Below, one piece after another: positions 5,711-17,270 of a stretch of 64,000 bases of DNA. Each line of letters starts with the position of its first letter. Position 1 is the stretch's first letter. A program made the translations under genes and the position numbers. Source of the DNA: Thermoanaerobaculia bacterium (lineage in GTDB: Bacteria; Acidobacteriota; Thermoanaerobaculia; Gp7-AA8); assembly GCA_035996815.1 (NCBI GenBank), contig DASYJF010000145.1, forward strand, positions 24,345-88,344. The letters run 5' to 3'. The notes below the pieces were generated by a model that saw only the letters and a list, made by a program, of their open reading frames with translations, was not told where the DNA came from and made no database searches.

Positions 5711-8700
5711 ATGCCACAACCCGACCGTACCGCCGAACTTCGCGAACTGCTCGACCGCCGCATCCTCATTCTCGACGGCGCGATGGGGACGATGATCCAG
5801 CGCTACCGGCTCGATGAAGCCGGCTATCGCGGAACACAGTTCGCGACGCATTCGCGCGATCTCAAAGGCGCCAACGACATCCTCTGTCTCACGAATCCGA
5901 AGATCGTCGAAGAGATCCATCGCCAATATCTCGACGCCGGCGCCGACATCATCGAGACCAACACGTTCAACGCGCAGGCGATCTCGTTGGCCGATTACGA
6001 CCTCGTCGAATACGCCTACGACATCAACCTCGCCGCCGCGCGGCTTGCACGCGCCGCGTGCGACGCGTACTCGACTGCGGACCGTCCGCGTTTCGTGGCC
6101 GGCTCGCTCGGGCCGACCAACCGCACGGCCTCGCTCTCGCCCGACGTCAACAACCCTGCGTTTCGCGGCGTGTCGTTCGACGAGCTGGTCGACGCCTACT
6201 ACGACCAGATTCGCGGCCTCGTCGACGGCGGCTCAGACATCCTCATGCCGGAGACGACGTTCGATACGCTCAACCTCAAGGCCGCGCTCTTCGCGATCGA
6301 AAAGTACTTCGCCGACACCGGCATCCGCCTGCCGATCATCGCCTCGATCACCATCACCGACGCCTCGGGACGCACGCTTTCCGGACAGACCGTCGAAGCG
6401 TGCTGGAACTCGATCTCGCACGCGCCGCTCCTCGCCACCGGTATCAACTGCGCCCTCGGCGCGAAGGAGATGCGCCCGCACATCGAAGAGCTGGCGTCGA
6501 TCGCGCCGGTCTACCTCAGTTGCTATCCGAACGCCGGCCTTCCGAACGCGCTCGGCGAGTACGACCAGACGCCCGACGAGATGGCCGCGCTGCTGCACGA
6601 ATACGCCGGCAACAGCTGGATCAACATCGTCGGCGGCTGTTGCGGCACGACGCCCGATTTCGTTCGCGCCATCGCCGAAACCGTGAAGAGCTTTCCGCCG
6701 CGGAAGCCGCCGGTCATCGAGAAGCATCTGCGGCTCAGCGGACTGGAAGCGCTCACCGTCACGCCGGAGTCGAACTTCATCATGGTCGGCGAGCGCACCA
6801 ACGTCACCGGCTCGCCGAAGTTCGCGCAGCTCATCAAAGCAGGCGACATCGAGCCGGCGCTGGCAATCGCCAAACAGCAGATCGACGGCGGCGCGAACAT
6901 CCTCGACGTCAACATGGACGAGGGACTGCTCGACTCTGAGAAAGTGATGACGCACTTTCTGCACCTTGTCGCTTCGGAGCCAGACATCGCCCGCGTCCCG
7001 ATCATGATCGACTCGTCGAAATGGACGGTGCTCGAAGCGGGACTGAAATGCACGCAGGGAAAATCAGTCGTCAATTCGATCTCGCTGAAAGAGGGCGAAG
7101 AGAAGTTTCGCGAGCAGGCCCGCCTCATCAAACGCTACGGCGCGGCGGTGATCGTGATGGCGTTCGACGAACAGGGCCAGGCTGATTCGATCGAGCGCAA
7201 AGTCGCAATCTGTTCGCGGGCGTACGCGATCCTCGTCGACGAAGTTGGTTTCGATCCGACCGACGTCATCTTCGATCCGAATGTCCTCACCGTCGCCACC
7301 GGAATCGAAGAGCACAACAACTACGGCGTCGCCTTCATCGAAGCCGTCCGCCAGCTGCACGAGCGTTTTCCGCTGGCCAGTTTCTCCGGCGGCATCAGCA
7401 ACGTCTCGTTCTCATTCCGCGGCAACAAGACCGTGCGCGAGGCCATGCACGCCGCGTTTCTCTACCACGCCATCAAAGCCGGCCTGACCATGGGAATCGT
7501 CAACGCCGGGCAACTCGCGATTTACGACGAGATTCCGCCGGAGCTGCGCGATCTCGTCGAAGACGTACTGCTGAATCGCCGTTCCGACGCCACCGAGCGT
7601 CTGCTCACGTACGCCGATTCGATCAAAGGCCAAGGCGCAACGACCGCGAAGGAAGCAGAAGCGTGGCGCAGCGGAACCATCGAAGAGCGGCTCTCACACT
7701 CGCTCGTCAAGGGAATCATCGAGCACCTCGATGACGACGTCGAAGAAGCGCGGCAGAAGTATCCAAGCGCTCTCTCGATCATCGAAGGGCCGCTGATGGA
7801 CGGCATGAACGTCGTCGGCAATCTCTTCGGCGCCGGCAAGATGTTTCTCCCGCAGGTCGTAAAGAGCGCGCGCGTCATGAAGAAGGCGGTCGCGTATCTG
7901 CTGCCGTTCATGGAAGCGGAGAAAGCGAAAGCCGGCGATCTCTCACAGCGCGGCAAAGTGCTGATGGCGACGGTGAAGGGCGACGTTCACGACATCGGCA
8001 AGAACATCGTCGGCGTCGTTCTCGGCTGCAACAACTACGAAGTCATCGACCTCGGCGTGATGGTTTCGGCCGACAAGATTCTCGACACCGCCATTGCCGA
8101 AAAGGCCGACATCATCGGCCTCTCCGGCCTGATCACGCCGTCGCTCGATGAGATGGTTCACGTGGCGCGCGAGATGGAACGCCGCAGCTTCACCGTCCCG
8201 ATGCTCATCGGCGGAGCCACCACTTCCAAATTGCACACCGCCGTGAAAATCGCGCCGCGCTATTCGCACGCGACCGTCCACGTGCTCGACGCCTCGCGCG
8301 CCGTCGGCGTGGTCAGCACGCTGCTCTCCGATCGCAAGGACGAATTCGTCCGCGAGCGCAACGCCGAGTACGAGCATCTCCGCGAAGCGCAGGCCAAACG
8401 TCAGGATGTGGTGAAGATCCTGCCGCTCGAAACCGCGCGCCGCCGCAAACCATCGCTCACCTTTTCTCCCGACCGTCCACCCTTCCTCGGCGTGCGCGTT
8501 CTCGATGACGTTCCACTCGAACGCATCGAGCCGTTCATCGACTGGAATCCGTTCTTTTCCGCGTGGGAACTGCGCGGGCGCTTCCCGCAGATCCTCGACG
8601 AGCCGCGCGCGAAAGAGCTGTACGAAGACGGCCAGCACCTGCTGCGCGAGATCATCGACAACCGCCTGATCCGCGCCACCGCCGTCTACGGTTTCTGGCC

Positions 8701-9430: not shown

Positions 9431-9518
9431 AAGCTTTTCACGCGGAGTCGCGGGGTCGCGGAGAAAAGCTCTCAACCTCCGCGTCTCCGCGTCTCCGCGC
9501 GAAAAGGTTCTCTGTCGC
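9430..9518. repeat. Dispersed ~87-bp palindromic element, copy B, at the convergent junction metH / TPR gene
   Basis: agcttttcacgcggagtcgcggggtcgcggagaaa…cctccgcgtctccgcgtctccgcgcgaaaagg. About 85% identical to copy A and ends with the inverted form of copy A's start. Confidence 0.6.
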
Positions 9519-12382: not shown

Positions 12383-13078
12383 TCAGACCTTCGCCATCGC
12401 CGCGGCGATCGAACGGAAAATGCCGAAGCCGTCGGTGTTACCCAGCAGCGCTTCGGCACAACGCTCCGGATGCGGCATCATCCCGAGCTCGTTGCGGCCC
12501 GCGTTGCAAATGCCGGCGATGTTGCGCGCGGAACCGTTCGGATTCGCGTCGCGCGTGATGCGCCCCTCGGCATCGCAATAGCGAAAGATGACCTGTCGAT
12601 TGCGCTCGAGATCATCGAGCGTTGCGTCATCCGCGAAGTAGTTGCCTTCGCCATGCGCGATCGGAACACGCAGCACCGCGCCGCGCTCCAATTCGCACGT
12701 GAACGGCGTATCCGTCTCTTCGACACGCAGAAAAACGTCGCGGCCGAGGAAACGCAGATGCTGGTTGCGCATCAGCGCGCCGGGCAGCAGACCGGCCTCG
12801 GTGAGCACCTGAAATCCGTTGCAGATGCCGAAGACCATTCCGCCATCGGCCGCATGACGCCGGATCGGCTCCATCACCGGCGCGAACTTCGCCAGCGCGC
12901 CGGCGCGAAGGTAATCGCCGTACGCGAACCCGCCGGGGATGATCACGCAGTCGGCGCCACGAAGGTCCGTCTCCTTGTGCCACAGCAGTTCGACCTCGGC
13001 TTCGAGCACATCACGCGTCACGTGCACCGCGTCGTGATCGCAGTTCGAGCCGGGCAGGACGACGACGCCGAATTTCAT
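12383..13078 (-). CDS. purQ: Phosphoribosylformylglycinamidine synthase, glutaminase subunit
   Basis: [16 protein letters not shown]…GICNGFQ…HGEGN…PHPER: class-I glutamine amidotransferase triad in a PurQ-specific context. Confidence 0.9.
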
Positions 13079-13179
13079 GGCGCGCAAGTTTAGCGCGGGC
13101 TCGCGATGTAACGAACCCCGATGAGCCTGCAGTACTTCTTTACTACCGGAGATCGGGAGCAGGTCCTCCCAACACCAAA

Positions 13180-14543
13180 ATGGTCTTCAGGTCCAAAACG
13201 GATAGCGGCGAGATCAAGAAGCCGCAGCAGCAGAACTCGCGGGTTCCGCTGGTGATCACGATCGTGGCGCTGGCCGTGGTGGGGAGCGCCTACTACGTTT
13301 ATTACCGCCAGCACGCGGAGTACTACACCGGCCGGAATCTGCGCCTTCTCTCCATGCTCAGGTCGAAGGACGCGTGACGATGTTCTCGTCAGCCTGAAAG
13401 CTCAATCCGTTGGCGCGGGCACCTCCGGCAAGAAAATCGACGACATCTTCTCCACGCCGGGATTGAAGTTCGGACAATGTTCCGAAGAACTCCCGGCCGA
13501 GCTGCCGAAGCCGGGCCGCATCCAGATGCGGCGCGATGCCGTAGAAAGCGCGCGCGGTTGGAAAATGCGGCTGCGGGCGTATCTCGATCAACAGACGACA
13601 TGCGCGTCCGTCACGATCGACGATGTCGCTCGTCCGATCTTTACGCGCGACCTCGGCGCCGCCTTCGACGTGCTTCTCATAGCCAGGGAGGACGGCACCG
13701 TTCTGTACAGCATCCGTCCTCCTCCTGCGTCATCGACACTTCTCGGCAATCAAGATGAATGGATCGTGAAGCGGAAGAGCTCCCGCCCGTCGCGCCGATC
13801 AAATCAGCGGCGTCAATGACGGCCACGCTTCCGACCGCAGCGCCAGCCACAGATACTTCATCCGCGGACAAGAAATCCGCGAGCGACTCCTCAAGCAAAT
13901 CGGCCGTGATGACGGAACGCGACAACGGACCGCCGGTGCTGATCACCAATCTGAAGGCGCTGCAGAAACGAAAGGCCGGCTGGTTCTCGGGCTACGAGCC
14001 GGTCACTCCGGCATCGCTGACGATGGCCACCAGCGACATTACCGTGTCGCTCGGCGGCAGCGACTACGGGCTGTTTACGCAGCCCTACACCTACTCGCGA
14101 TTGCCGGCCAGCGTCCACGCCAGGAAGAGCAACGAGTGGGCGTCTGCGGATTGGTATCGGCATCGCGCTTTCGCTACGACGTCTTCGCCGTTTCGACGTC
14201 AATCGTCCTGATCGCAATCGCCATCGGCCTGCTGGCGCTTTGCTGCTGGCCGTATCTTCGGATCGCGCTCATTCATCCGAGTCAGCCTCTGGCAATCACC
14301 GACGTCGTACTTATCATCTTCTGCACCATCGTCGGCTCGGTCGTGATCACGCTGGCGCTGCTCGACGCGTTCGCCTACCGCGGCATCACGCAAACCGCTG
14401 ACGAACAACTGCAGAAGTTCGGCGACGCGGTGAACCGCGACTTCGCCCGCGACGTCAGCCGCGCCATGGAGACGTCCTCGCGGCAGCTCAACCAGAGGCC
14501 GGCGAAGTACGCCACGGCGCTGACCACAGGACTACGATCCTGA
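13180..14543 (+). pseudogene. Probable degraded sensor gene (TM – Cache-like periplasmic domain – TM – HAMP-like), broken into four frames and lacking an output domain
   Basis: Consecutive plus-strand ORFs in frames 1/2/1/3 (13180-13377, ~13376-13819, 13759-14211, 14136-14543). Together they read TM helix, …LLIAREDGTVLYS… and …ITVSLGGSDYGLFTQPY… (Cache-like), TM helix, HAMP-like segment, then stop. No kinase or MCP domain follows. Confidence 0.35.
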
Positions 14544-14616
14544 TGAAACTGGTCGGAGCATTCGCCGAAAAGCGCAGCGACGTGAACGCGTAGGGACGCG
14601 AAGGTGGGATCCGCCT

Positions 14617-14634
14617 GGCTCCGGCAGTAAGACG
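14617..14634. repeat. Distal att-like direct repeat of the tRNA-Asn 3' end (17/18 identical)
   Basis: Direct sequence comparison with 16583-16600. Confidence 0.65.
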
Positions 14635-14688
14635 AAGGACCCCTCACTTTGGTCACGCAACCCCGCGCGAGCAAAGAATGCCAAAAGA

Positions 14689-14925
14689 ATGGCAAAACAA
14701 CCGTATACTTCGACGACCATGGCGCGGCAGCCGAACCAGTTACCAACGGCGACCCTGACGGTGTCCACGACGCCGCAAGTGCTGCTGGAACTCGAACGCT
14801 TGGTTTCGACCGGCCATTTCGGAAAAAATACGGCGGATGCGGCCGAGAGAATCATCTCGACGTACTTGCATTCAGCGTTCGGAAGCGAAACTGCCAGCCC
14901 GAGAAACGCGACAAGCAACCGATAG
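14689..14925 (+). CDS. Small ribbon-helix-helix (CopG/Arc-like) putative regulator
   Basis: …TATLTVSTTPQVLLELERLVSTGHFGKNTADAAERIISTYL… fits the RHH beta-strand + two-helix pattern. Stop lies 17 nt before the next gene. Confidence 0.4.
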   Translation: MAKQPYTSTTMARQPNQLPTATLTVSTTPQVLLELERLVSTGHFGKNTADAAERIISTYLHSAFGSETASPRNATSNR

Positions 14926-14941
14926 GGGGTCCGGCACAGCG

Positions 14942-15691
14942 ATGCCCATCGACGATAAACGGTTATTGAAAAACGCTCCAATCGTCGAAGCGCTCATCGA
15001 TATTCGGGTAACGCCGGCGGACAGTTTCACTCAGACCCACCTGGAAGCTGTGAAGAGTCAGCTCGGCAAATTTTTTTCGTCCGTGGACGAACAAAAACAG
15101 GGTGAGCTGTTTTTTCAGATCGTCGAGGGCCGCGTCGCGGAGCCTCCGACGGTCGCCGACCGCGGCGTGACCGGTCTGCTGTTTCGGGCCACCGACCGTG
15201 AGGAGGCAGTGCAGGTTCAGGAAGGGGGCTTCGTATTCAGCAAACTCAGGCCTTACTCGAGCTGGGAAGACGTCTCCACTTCGGCTCGTCGGTACTGGGA
15301 GATTTACTCGTCTGCCATCCCGCTTAGGCAAGTGAATCGATTAGCAGTGCGATACATCAACCATTTTGTCGTACCGCGGCACAAGCAGATATCGGATTAC
15401 TTGGCGGCGCCGCCGGCCGTTCCGGAGGGCATCGAACCAGCGTCGCTGATGAACTCCCTATCGCGGTTGTTGCTTATTGGACCTGGAAATCTAGAAGCGA
15501 GACTTCAGCTGGCGTGTGACACAGCAGACTTCGGATCCAACGTGTTAATGGATATCGACTGCTTTCGCGCGGTGCAATTTGAGCCGTCCGCCGATACGTT
15601 CTGGCCGTCTCTGCAGGAACTTCGCGAGATGAAAAATCGTATCTTTTTCGGAAGCATCACCCGTTTTGCAGAAGAGGAGTTCAACAAATGA
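14942..15691 (+). CDS. TIGR04255-family-like hypothetical protein
   Basis: N-terminus …KNAPIVEALIDIRV… matches the conserved N-terminal signature I associate with TIGR04255. No catalytic motif identified. Start trimmed to MPIDDKRL. Confidence 0.5.
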   Translation: MPIDDKRLLKNAPIVEALIDIRVTPADSFTQTHLEAVKSQLGKFFSSVDEQKQGELFFQIVEGRVAEPPTVADRGVTGLLFRATDREEAVQVQEGGFVFSKLRPYSSWEDVSTSARRYWEIYSSAIPLRQVNRLAVRYINHFVVPRHKQISDYLAAPPAVPEGIEPASLMNSLSRLLLIGPGNLEARLQLACDTADFGSNVLMDIDCFRAVQFEPSADTFWPSLQELREMKNRIFFGSITRFAEEEFNK

Positions 15692-16188
15692 CTGCCGACA
15701 CCCCGTGGATCAATGTTGACCTGTTTGCCGGCGACTCGAGTACCGCGGTGGGAGTCGAGGCTCGATGCTTCGCGACCACAGAGCGCGAGATCATTTCGGA
15801 GTGGCTCGCGGCACCAATCACGGGCGCTCCCTTGCGCGACGGCCTTCGAGCGATCATGGAAGCGGCAAGTGAAACGCAGAGGACGAATTGGGACGGCAAC
15901 GGAGCGGCGCCTTTTAAACAGCGGGCATTACTCAACGCGGTACGGTTGCTGAAGCGACTTCCGGTAACCATGCCAGTCGATGATGTCTATGTTGATGCTG
16001 ATGGAGCCGTACTGCTTGAGTGGCAGACTTCGACCAAACGTTCCTTTACCGTAGCCGTCAACGAACATGGCGAACTGCACTTCGCCGGTGTGTTCGGGCT
16101 GAGCCGCCTTCGAGGCCGCGATATTTTTGTCGGCGACCGCGTACCTGAAAGCATCCGTCTTGGCATCCGCCGGGTGTTCGACGCGTGA
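15688..16188 (+). CDS. Hypothetical protein (166 aa), translationally coupled (ATGA overlap)
   Basis: ORF with a 4-nt overlap to the upstream gene. No recognisable motif. Confidence 0.5.
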   Translation: MTADTPWINVDLFAGDSSTAVGVEARCFATTEREIISEWLAAPITGAPLRDGLRAIMEAASETQRTNWDGNGAAPFKQRALLNAVRLLKRLPVTMPVDDVYVDADGAVLLEWQTSTKRSFTVAVNEHGELHFAGVFGLSRLRGRDIFVGDRVPESIRLGIRRVFDA

Positions 16189-16565
16189 CGATGTTTTCTG
16201 TCGTCGCCGCAGAATCTGCTGTTGCTCGGTTTCTCTTCAGCGGCCATCTGAAAGGAAGCCGCGTTCGCCCCAACGCTTTCATCCCGCCGGAACACGACCT
16301 TCGGCTGTCGGTGTGTGTTACGGACGACCTCACGACCCAGGACATTCACGCATGGGGCAAGCTGTACGCGTCGTCCCCTGATCGCGAAGCCAAAGGATTC
16401 GCGCTTCTTCACGTCTTTGATTTTCACGCGGAGGACCTCTCGGTCGAGCGCGACGACGACCCGCCGCGTCACGCAGAAGTCGCTGGTTGGCCCGCCGACA
16501 AAGAAGCTCGCCTCGATGTCGCGAAGCAACTCGTGCGTGCGATTGCGGAGATTCAGTTAGGTTGA
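16185..16565 (+). CDS. Hypothetical protein (126 aa), translationally coupled (GTGA overlap)
   Basis: 4-nt overlap with the upstream gene. Ends 18 nt from the tRNA 3' end. No recognisable motif. Confidence 0.45.
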   Translation: MTMFSVVAAESAVARFLFSGHLKGSRVRPNAFIPPEHDLRLSVCVTDDLTTQDIHAWGKLYASSPDREAKGFALLHVFDFHAEDLSVERDDDPPRHAEVAGWPADKEARLDVAKQLVRAIAEIQLG

Positions 16566-16582
16566 TTCGGCGCTTGGCGCCT

Positions 16583-16658
16583 TGGCTCCGGCAGTAGGAC
16601 TCGAACCTACGACCCACGGATTAACAGTCCGTTGCTCTACCAACTGAGCTATGCCGGA
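16583..16658 (-). tRNA. tRNA-Asn (anticodon GTT)
   Basis: Reverse complement gives TCCGGCATAGCTCAGTTGGTAGAGCAACGGACTGTTAATCCGTGGGTCGTAGGTTCGAGTCCTACTGCCGGAGCCA. The cloverleaf folds, the anticodon loop is CTGTTAA, and CCA is encoded. Confidence 0.9.
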
Positions 16659-16709: not shown

Positions 16710-17171
16710 TCAACGTGGGGGCAAACCGAGGGGGGTGGCAGTGTATTTCGCGAGGGCGGAGGTCAGGCGCGGGAGCAAATCGGCGAGTTCGGAGTACTCG
16801 ATCAGGTCGATTTCGCGGTCGCCGGCGACCATGGCCGTGCAGCGCGATGTGTGCGCCGGCCGGTAGAGGCAGATGACCGGGATTCCGTAGCGGTAGCGGG
16901 CGGTGGCGATCTCGTATCCGACTCCCGTCGACGGCATCGACGCTTCGGCCACGAGCACGTCGGCGGCGGCGATCCAGGCGAGGTCGCGGTCGAAGATCGG
17001 GCAGGAGTCGAGCGCCTCGCCGGATGCGGTCACATGTTCCGCGGCTACTGCGCCGGCGAGCACGTGATGGCCTGCGGCTTCGAGTGCCGCGATGATCTCG
17101 CGATACAGCGCGACGTCGCCGCGGCCTCCGCTGATTGCGCCGGCGAAGTAGATCGTTCTTTTGACTTTCAT
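16710..17171 (-). CDS. 2'-deoxynucleoside 5'-phosphate N-hydrolase (DNPH1/Rcl-like; nucleoside 2-deoxyribosyltransferase superfamily)
   Basis: TIYFAGAISGGRGD…LYREIIAAL…DRDLAWIAAADVLVAEASMPSTGVGYEIATA…ICLYRP closely parallels the DNPH1 sequence as I recall it. Confidence 0.65.
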   Translation of the reverse strand: MKVKRTIYFAGAISGGRGDVALYREIIAALEAAGHHVLAGAVAAEHVTASGEALDSCPIFDRDLAWIAAADVLVAEASMPSTGVGYEIATARYRYGIPVICLYRPAHTSRCTAMVAGDREIDLIEYSELADLLPRLTSALAKYTATPLGLPPR

Positions 17172-17254
17172 CCTGCGTGAGCGCAGCGAGCGTCAGGATC
17201 TCCAGTTGGCGCGGTTCCACCGGAGATCCTGACGATCGCTGCGCTCACGCAGGA
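17170..17254. promoter_or_regulatory. 34-bp-arm near-perfect inverted repeat (1 mismatch, 17-nt spacer) over the start of the DNPH1-like gene and the rng leader
   Basis: atcctgcgtgagcgcagcgagcgtcaggatctcc … ggagatcctgacgatcgctgcgctcacgcaggat. Confidence 0.7.
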
Positions 17255-17270
17255 TAGAGTAGAAAAAACC

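Follow-up and report, generated by a model that had tools for sequence, protein, structure and literature searches.

Four plus-strand ORFs in alternating frames (13180-13377, 65 aa; 13463-13819, 118 aa; 13759-14211, 150 aa; 14136-14543, 135 aa) follow one another in the window, which is the whole 64-kb stretch of DNA analysed, and they lie beside a small islet at a tRNA-Asn gene. The question that this locus raises is whether these ORFs are small genes in their own right or the debris of a larger one. Judged from its sequence, the interval 13180-14593 (+) is one broken gene and not a set of separate small genes, and it is very likely a unitary pseudogene, young and non-functional, that derives from a gene conserved in Thermoanaerobaculia between purQ and tRNA-Asn. 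In support of this, the conceptual protein obtained by joining the frames matches P0001 (638 aa) with 69% identity over 96% of the query (phmmer, E 2e-183), and P0003 and P0005 also match it over more than 90% of the query. Taken alone, none of the four short ORFs gave a Pfam match, a result that is uninformative until the frames are joined. The original prediction had read the ORFs jointly as one inactivated, membrane-bound sensor-type gene, and this part of it stands, since they are collinear with single long proteins.

Moreover, a frameshift-tolerant search against intact genes, performed by tblastn with the intact L006 orthologue (1466 aa) against the whole window, gave five collinear pieces with E values from 5e-73 to 2.5e-4 (the range 5e-73 to 2e-32 is also quoted for this tiling). 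Residues 1-63 of the L006 protein align with 13180-13368 (+ frame 1, 84% identity), residues 64-204 with 13355-13765 (+ frame 2, 61%), residues 191-369 with 13714-14241 (+ frame 1, 47%, E 2e-32), residues 332-445 with 14142-14483 (+ frame 3, 88%) and residues 1449-1466 with 14537-14590 (+ frame 2, 94%). Since the L006 protein tiles the locus across frames, the reading of one gene in pieces is real and far beyond chance. The same search revealed no second copy of the L006-type gene within the 64-kb window. The longest ORF in the region has 150 aa, against the single uninterrupted ORF of ~1,330-1,530 aa that would mark an intact gene, and translation from the original ATG stops at the TGA at 13375-13377, so that the original start can give only a 65-residue peptide. 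The short ORFs have no independent homologues of their own length, and their exact-sequence clusters hold only copies from the same genome, as befits fragments of one gene. In the public record the pieces are annotated as the hypothetical proteins VGQ65_24870, VGQ65_24875 and VGQ65_24880, which should become one pseudogene.

The position of the pseudogene is orthologous to that of the intact gene. Collinear blastn alignments with L001, L006, L007, L018 and L019, together with tRNA scans, show purQ (12383-13087, minus strand) upstream and, on the downstream side, tRNA-Asn followed by the deoxyribosyltransferase gene, the conserved order being purQ, the gene, tRNA-Asn, nucleoside deoxyribosyltransferase and RNase E/G. 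The tRNA-Asn is also the downstream neighbour of the gene in L001, L006, L007, L009 and L011.

The small deletions were mapped base by base by alignment with the syntenic relatives L001 and L002, plus an alignment of the 3' end. Where three frameshifts had been proposed, this base-level alignment revealed five frame-breaking deletions, of 7, 7, 1, 1 and 1 bp. Segment 1 (13180..13358, + frame 1) carries the ATG, the cytoplasmic N-terminus and TM helix 1, roughly the first 60 codons of the ancestral gene, and it ends at the first 7-bp deletion (13358..13359, +), the first frameshift, where the relatives read CACCGCG or CACGGCG. Segment 2 (13359..13385, plus strand, third frame) is a stretch of 27 nt encoding QVEGRVTMF; it was recognised by three-frame translation against P0001/P0002 and by the alignment, and, lying as it does between both 7-bp deletions, it had been overlooked originally. 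The second 7-bp deletion (13385..13386, +; TCCGACT in the relatives) is followed by segment 3 (13386..13766, + frame 2), the first half of extracytoplasmic module 1. A 1-bp deletion at 13766..13767 (+; GATCG-TGA in the window versus GATCGACGA in the relatives) leads into segment 4 (13767..14140, + frame 1), which comprises a variable linker and the second half of module 1, and another at 14140..14141 (+; TGGG-CGTC versus TGGATCGTC) leads into segment 5 (14141..14469, + frame 3), which spans TM helices 2 and 3 and runs ~30 residues into the long N-terminal helix of dCache_1. The fifth small deletion, of 1 bp, lies between 14534 and 14535 (+), within the native 3' end.

The largest lesion is internal. 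According to the blastn breakpoints, homology to the intact genes ends at 14469, after the letters GCCATGG of segment 5, and restarts at 14511, and the missing interior amounts to ~3.0 kb or roughly 1,000 codons, equivalent to 2602-5599 of L006 and 11288-14300 of L001. The native 3' end (14511..14593, +) comprises the last ~18-27 codons, with the fifth small deletion inside, and closes with the native stop TAG at 14591-14593; it matches L001 14300-14422, L006 5599-5719 and L007 9452-9576 (blastn). Retained on the 3' side are these last codons, the TAG stop, a 22-nt spacer and the first 18 nt of the tRNA-Asn 3' end (14616-14633), and alignment shows L001 and L006 to be arranged in the same way at their islet-free sites. 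Since the native stop, the spacer and the tRNA-end repeat are kept, the gene is internally deleted and not 3'-truncated. Thus, of the truncated sensor gene proposed originally, the single broken gene is upheld, and the truncation is refuted by the restart of homology at 14511 and by the native stop and spacer.

Note that the two ends of this deletion are joined through an inverted remnant of the lost interior (14473..14520, minus strand), whose counterpart in the intact genes lies ~390-430 nt upstream of the stop codon. The filler 14473-14511 is identical at 38/39 positions to L007 9146-9108 on the reverse strand and, when the remnant is extended to 14520, it is identical at 44/48 positions to L018 7722-7675, also on the reverse strand, the length of the remnant being 39-48 nt depending on the relative compared. 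The right-hand junction falls inside a short microhomology, the last ~10 nt of the remnant overlapping the restarted native sequence. This junction structure is a direct observation, and it was probably produced by a template switch or a microhomology-mediated event, which would have generated a complex deletion of 3.0 kb and left the inverted fragment at the junction.

This anatomy also bears on the domain labels that the ORFs had been given. The helix originally described as HAMP-like aligns to the start of the dCache_1 profile, from position 4 onward, and is instead the beginning of a dCache_1 domain nearly all of which is deleted in the window. The dCache_1 domain, located between TM3 and TM4, is not present in the window product, since the corresponding segment is deleted, and the frame-corrected 429-aa product gave no Cache or HAMP match at E<=10. 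The segments described as Cache-like, LLIAREDGTVLYS and ITVSLGGSDYGLFTQPY, lie in module 1. This module has no detectable Cache sequence similarity, although the secondary structure predicted for it could belong to a PAS/Cache-like fold; the label is not supported by sequence and may or may not apply to the fold. In four members module 1 gave no Pfam match at E<=10, and its interpretation as a sequence duplicate of the dCache module (module 2) was rejected on the basis of an hhalign probability of 0.4% and the negative Pfam search at E<=10. The AF2 models predict for module 1 a long helix followed by two alpha/beta sub-domains (pLDDT ~85-95). Finally, the lack of a kinase, MCP or GGDEF output had been taken as a result of truncation. 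Intact members do not have such domains either and, therefore, the missing output is a property of the family and not an effect of truncation.

Could the lesions have arisen in the assembly? It had been proposed as an alternative that the frameshifts belong to the assembly, and the breaks are indeed in it, but they recur elsewhere. The JGI contig L021 (173 kb) is 100.000% identical to the window over 10,198 bases and the Logan contig L022 is 100.000% identical over 8,432 bases, in both cases with every lesion included. Moreover, the flanking genes have the same lengths as in the relatives (metH 1239, RNase E/G 500, gyrA 875 and deoxyribosyltransferase 153 aa). With three assemblies agreeing in every base and intact genes on either side, the lesions are unlikely to be an artefact of the assembler. 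For the organism to have an intact ~4.4-kb gene, the frameshifts and the 3-kb gap would have to come from assembly collapse or read errors, and we regard this as very improbable. In its favour, the source is a metagenome-derived MAG, and the three identical assemblies may share a single read set (SRR11678566, JGI 3300035671), in which case the fault may be peculiar to that sample, or the consensus may have caught a minority allele or one not yet fixed. Frame breaks are also found in other metagenomic contigs of the same gene family: L002 has its own 10-bp deletion in the gene, L001 has a gene with a single 1-nt shift and in L004 the gene is in three pieces, which reflects either repeated independent decay or contigs that are error-prone at this locus. 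However, the three assemblies come from three different pipelines, two 7-bp deletions and a deletion with an inverted insert of 39-48 nt are atypical of read errors, and across more than 15 kb around the locus about 9 neighbouring genes are undamaged and match their orthologues in length. A further candidate for a frameshifted copy, P0007/L003, was rejected because it comes from an error-ridden long-read contig in which metH is in at least 4 pieces.

Another explanation ties the loss to the neighbouring islet. The tRNA-Asn (GTT; 16583..16658, minus strand; ARAGORN) is the integration target, and the distal att-like repeat noted in the original prediction is real: the attL-like copy of the tRNA-Asn 3' end is 18 nt long (14616..14633), is identical to 16583-16600 at 17/18 positions and starts 22 nt after the stop codon of the pseudogene. 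The islet itself (14634..16582, plus strand, 1.95 kb) lies outside the pseudogene and serves here as context. It had been suggested that the gene was inactivated in connection with the history of the island, or that it represents a second, older island layer. Either version, whether the tRNA-Asn island truncated or inactivated the gene on integrating, on excising or while decaying, or the gene is an older layer of it, would fit with the gene adjoining the islet, with the distance of 22 nt between its stop and the distal repeat, and with the failure to find an integrase or recombinase in any islet ORF (Pfam, NCBIfam and PHROGs), which marks the islet as itself eroded. The comparison with the relatives refutes the proposed link, for which hardly any chance remains. 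In L018, L019 and L020 the islet is present, 89-95% identical and collinear, directly after an intact gene of 1469 or 1494 aa, with shared islet genes of 249/166/124 aa between that gene and the tRNA-Asn. Since the islet lies beside intact genes in these three genomes, it is older than the decay and not its cause. Conversely, it is absent from L001, L006 and L007, where the tRNA site is empty, the gene is intact or nearly so and its stop lies 19-23 nt from the tRNA-Asn, indicating that the gene is a conserved chromosomal neighbour of the tRNA in islet-free genomes. Because the gene retains its native 3' end and the distal repeat still follows after the native spacer, integration neither truncated nor disrupted the gene. 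In addition, the endpoint of the large deletion does not coincide with the att site, four of the lesions lie 0.5-1.3 kb from the islet, and there is no sign of an older layer, the missing DNA being interior gene sequence. Thus, adjacency to a tRNA islet does not imply causation.

That the fragments are functional as they stand, either as a set of novel small proteins of the membrane or as one gene read by programmed frameshifting or by ribosomal bypass, has next to no chance of being right. In its favour, the public record lists them as distinct hypothetical proteins, and conservation remains very high once the frames are corrected. Against it, they are without homologues of the same short lengths (the clusters being copies of one genome), and ~1,000 codons have been lost, among them those for the dCache and cytoplasmic domains. 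Programmed frameshifting was rejected because two thirds of the gene are missing and the five shifts occur at unrelated sequences, share no slippery motif and are conserved in no relative.

The pseudogene reading is thus preferred, and the sequence also indicates how old the decay is. The frame-corrected translation keeps 81/82 of the positions that are conserved at >=90% in the family, the single one lost falling within a 7-bp deletion; the median for intact members is 2 mismatches at the same positions. Nei-Gojobori dN/dS between the pseudogene and its relatives is 0.21-0.33, only marginally above the 0.14-0.26 found among intact copies, and we infer relaxed selection from the lesions and not from the substitution patterns. 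Taken together, the 81/82 conserved residues and the dN/dS values indicate that the inactivation is recent when set against the ~15% by which the DNA differs from that of the closest relatives sampled. Each of the six lesions is a deletion. Bacterial genomes have a well-known deletional bias, which this pattern fits, and the deletion-bias model of bacterial pseudogenes is reportedly that of Mira, Ochman and Moran. The decay was very likely an independent loss, under relaxed selection and with the usual deletion bias, and the fragments presumably have no useful expression.

As occurs with bacterial unitary pseudogenes, the remnant lies in situ at the orthologous position with its neighbouring genes intact, its lesions are all deletions and its pieces have been annotated as several 'hypothetical proteins'. 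In contrast with typical examples, the window copy is very young, with 81/82 conserved residues intact, and its junction is complex and carries a short inverted remnant. The phenomenon itself is ordinary; the locus is, however, a cleanly documented case of a gene lost very recently from an uncultured lineage of Acidobacteriota, and one of its lesions bears a template-switch-like inverted remnant. The corrected anatomy and annotation come with a first architectural description of the parent family, which alone is mildly novel.

The parent family, as yet uncharacterised, occurs widely in Thermoanaerobaculia. A scan of the GTDB species representatives with the TM2/TM3 block as query gave 13 loci, all in Thermoanaerobaculia or Acidobacteriota MAGs; 10/13 carry the gene as one uninterrupted ORF of 1327-1474 aa (intact in L006-L015), and 2 others are cut by contig ends. 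The protein search identified ~90 near-full-length members of 1,250-1,530 aa, annotated as 'cache domain-containing protein' or 'hypothetical protein', of which P0008, P0015 and P0020 are examples (~1,330-1,530 aa). The only Pfam/NCBIfam signal in intact members is dCache_1 (PF02743) at aa ~412-668, between TM helices, starting at aa 412-414 in L006 and L007, with scores near the gathering threshold (36-48 bits for a cut-off of 45; 47.7 bits in P0005). HAMP (PF00672), HisKA/HATPase_c, MCPsignal and GGDEF were all absent from the Pfam and NCBIfam matches of the intact proteins of L006, L007, L009, L012, L014 and L016.

Two confident AF2 models, built on an 80-sequence alignment, reached pLDDT 82.4 with pTM 0.76 and pLDDT 82.4 with pTM 0.73. 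In these models the N-terminal part is arranged as TM1, an extracytoplasmic alpha/beta module, TM2 and TM3 and the dCache module, and the C-terminal part as more TM helices with an extra-membrane domain, a TM helix, a cytoplasmic alpha/beta domain, a helical, winged-helix-like region and two C-terminal TM helices. The intact protein is, as modelled, polytopic with about 12 TM helices, ~6 of which would follow dCache_1 together with a further extra-membrane domain. Foldseek gave matches to dCache ligand-binding domains at a probability of 1.0. A sequence-profile search of the PDB gave nothing meaningful (best E 0.13), the Walker A motif [GA]xxxxGK[ST] is absent from the cytoplasmic domain of 81 full-length members, and a literature search for Thermoanaerobaculia with 'Cache domain' found no papers.

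As in the dCache_1 receptors PctA, Mlp37/Mlp24, Tlp3 and DctB, intact members have the dCache_1 domain between TM helices. Unlike dCache_1 chemoreceptors and sensor kinases, they are without MCP-signal, HisKA/HATPase, GGDEF and HAMP domains, they have an extra N-terminal extracytoplasmic module without detectable Cache sequence similarity and a predicted ~12 TM helices, and the window copy has lost nearly the whole dCache. The cytoplasmic domain was compared with AAA+ initiator/loader-type folds, namely the DnaI/DnaC helicase loader (5he8), the RFC small subunit (2chg/1iqp), MuB (4bs1), DnaA domain III (8btg/2z4r) and the Walker-type ATPase PABY2304 (2qen). Unlike these, it has no Walker A and no sequence-level family match and is set between TM helices, and the AAA+-like domain is wholly missing from the window. 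Tentatively, the intact parent might be an undescribed type of transmembrane receptor, found only in Thermoanaerobaculia and related Acidobacteriota and nearly always beside tRNA-Asn, in which one or two extracytoplasmic sensor modules (one of them dCache) would connect through ~12 TM helices to a cytoplasmic Walker-A-less AAA+-like domain with a winged-helix-like region, in place of the classical kinase, MCP or cyclase outputs. If this were true, the sensing function lost here, and possibly lost independently in L002 and L004, would be dispensable and tied to particular environments. The predicted architecture, with its dCache, polytopic membrane region and AAA+-like cytoplasmic module, could guide work on the family.

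Finally, the islet carries a 78-aa ORF, a gene at 14942-15691 that belongs to the TIGR04255 family (NCBIfam, E 3e-33) and two small genes at 15688-16188 and 16191-16565. Weak, paired PADLOC matches to PDC-M32A and PDC-M32B (E ~1e-3) were observed for the two small genes; literature searches found no papers for TIGR04255 and only one mention, an unrelated one, for PDC-M32. The 2.3-2.7 kb that separate the gene from tRNA-Asn in L010 and L012 were considered as related islets and rejected, since they hold single unrelated large genes. Unlike tRNA-targeted genomic islands, the islet measures only 1.95 kb and is without integrase, and its distal repeat is degenerating in L019 and gone in L018. Like them, it has the 17/18 repeat of the tRNA-Asn 3' end, a presence/absence polymorphism among relatives, sporadically distributed cargo (the TIGR04255 family) and a lower G+C, which the composition profile puts at 0.54-0.58 against 0.62-0.67 in the flanks.

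The islet located between the tRNA-Asn gene and the repeat of its 3' end encodes three overlapping, co-directional genes (window 14942-16565). The first of these (14942-15691) encodes a TIGR04255-family protein (E 3e-33), while the second and the third (15688-16188 and 16191-16565) gave weak PADLOC matches to PDC-M32A (E 1e-3) and PDC-M32B (E 9e-4), respectively, which are the two components of a single PADLOC candidate defence system. The islet trio may form a small module with a defence or toxin-like role. Note that the same three genes are also carried by the related loci L018, L019 and L020. The islet also has an ORF of 78 aa at its distal edge (14689-14925). This ORF is predicted as a gene in both the JGI and the Logan copy of this locus, and the Pfam and PHROG searches returned no match for it.

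On the other side of the receptor gene, the related locus L001 carries a 4.2-kb insertion (L001 5829-9855) that separates this gene from purQ. Thus, the purQ side of the gene is a variable spot too. This insertion codes for two small proteins and for an NB-ARC/STAND NTPase of 1029 aa that carries TPR repeats; the NTPase gene may be an Avs-like defence gene.

Other metagenomic copies of the receptor gene have frame breaks of their own: a 10-bp deletion at ~10925 in L002, a 1-nt shift at ~11845 in L001, and two breaks, at ~3330 and ~4500, in the JGI contig L004. These could represent repeated independent losses of the gene or assembly errors. In L004, highly repetitive DNA is present on either side of the receptor gene (1500-2900 and 7000-8185), with WGQTF/GSDLRLSG-like repeats read in all frames.

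A 37-nt inverted repeat (95% complementary, with a 12-nt loop) was observed at 17170-17255, between the deoxyribosyltransferase and the RNase E/G genes. Its hairpin has a folding energy of -74 kcal/mol (z -12.3), and the repeat is also kept in the related loci L006, L007 and L018. This structure may be a bidirectional terminator or regulatory element, or else an autoregulatory structure in the 5'-UTR of RNase E/G. Finally, a palindromic, REP-like element of ~75 nt (TTTTCACGCGGAG.CGCGGGG.CGCGGAGA...) occurs twice in intergenic DNA of the window, at 2684-2761 and 9435-9509; the two copies form long hairpins (-53 kcal/mol with z -7.5, and -55 kcal/mol with z -8.2, respectively). These elements are kept 3' (downstream) of metH in L001, L002 and the error-ridden contig L003.
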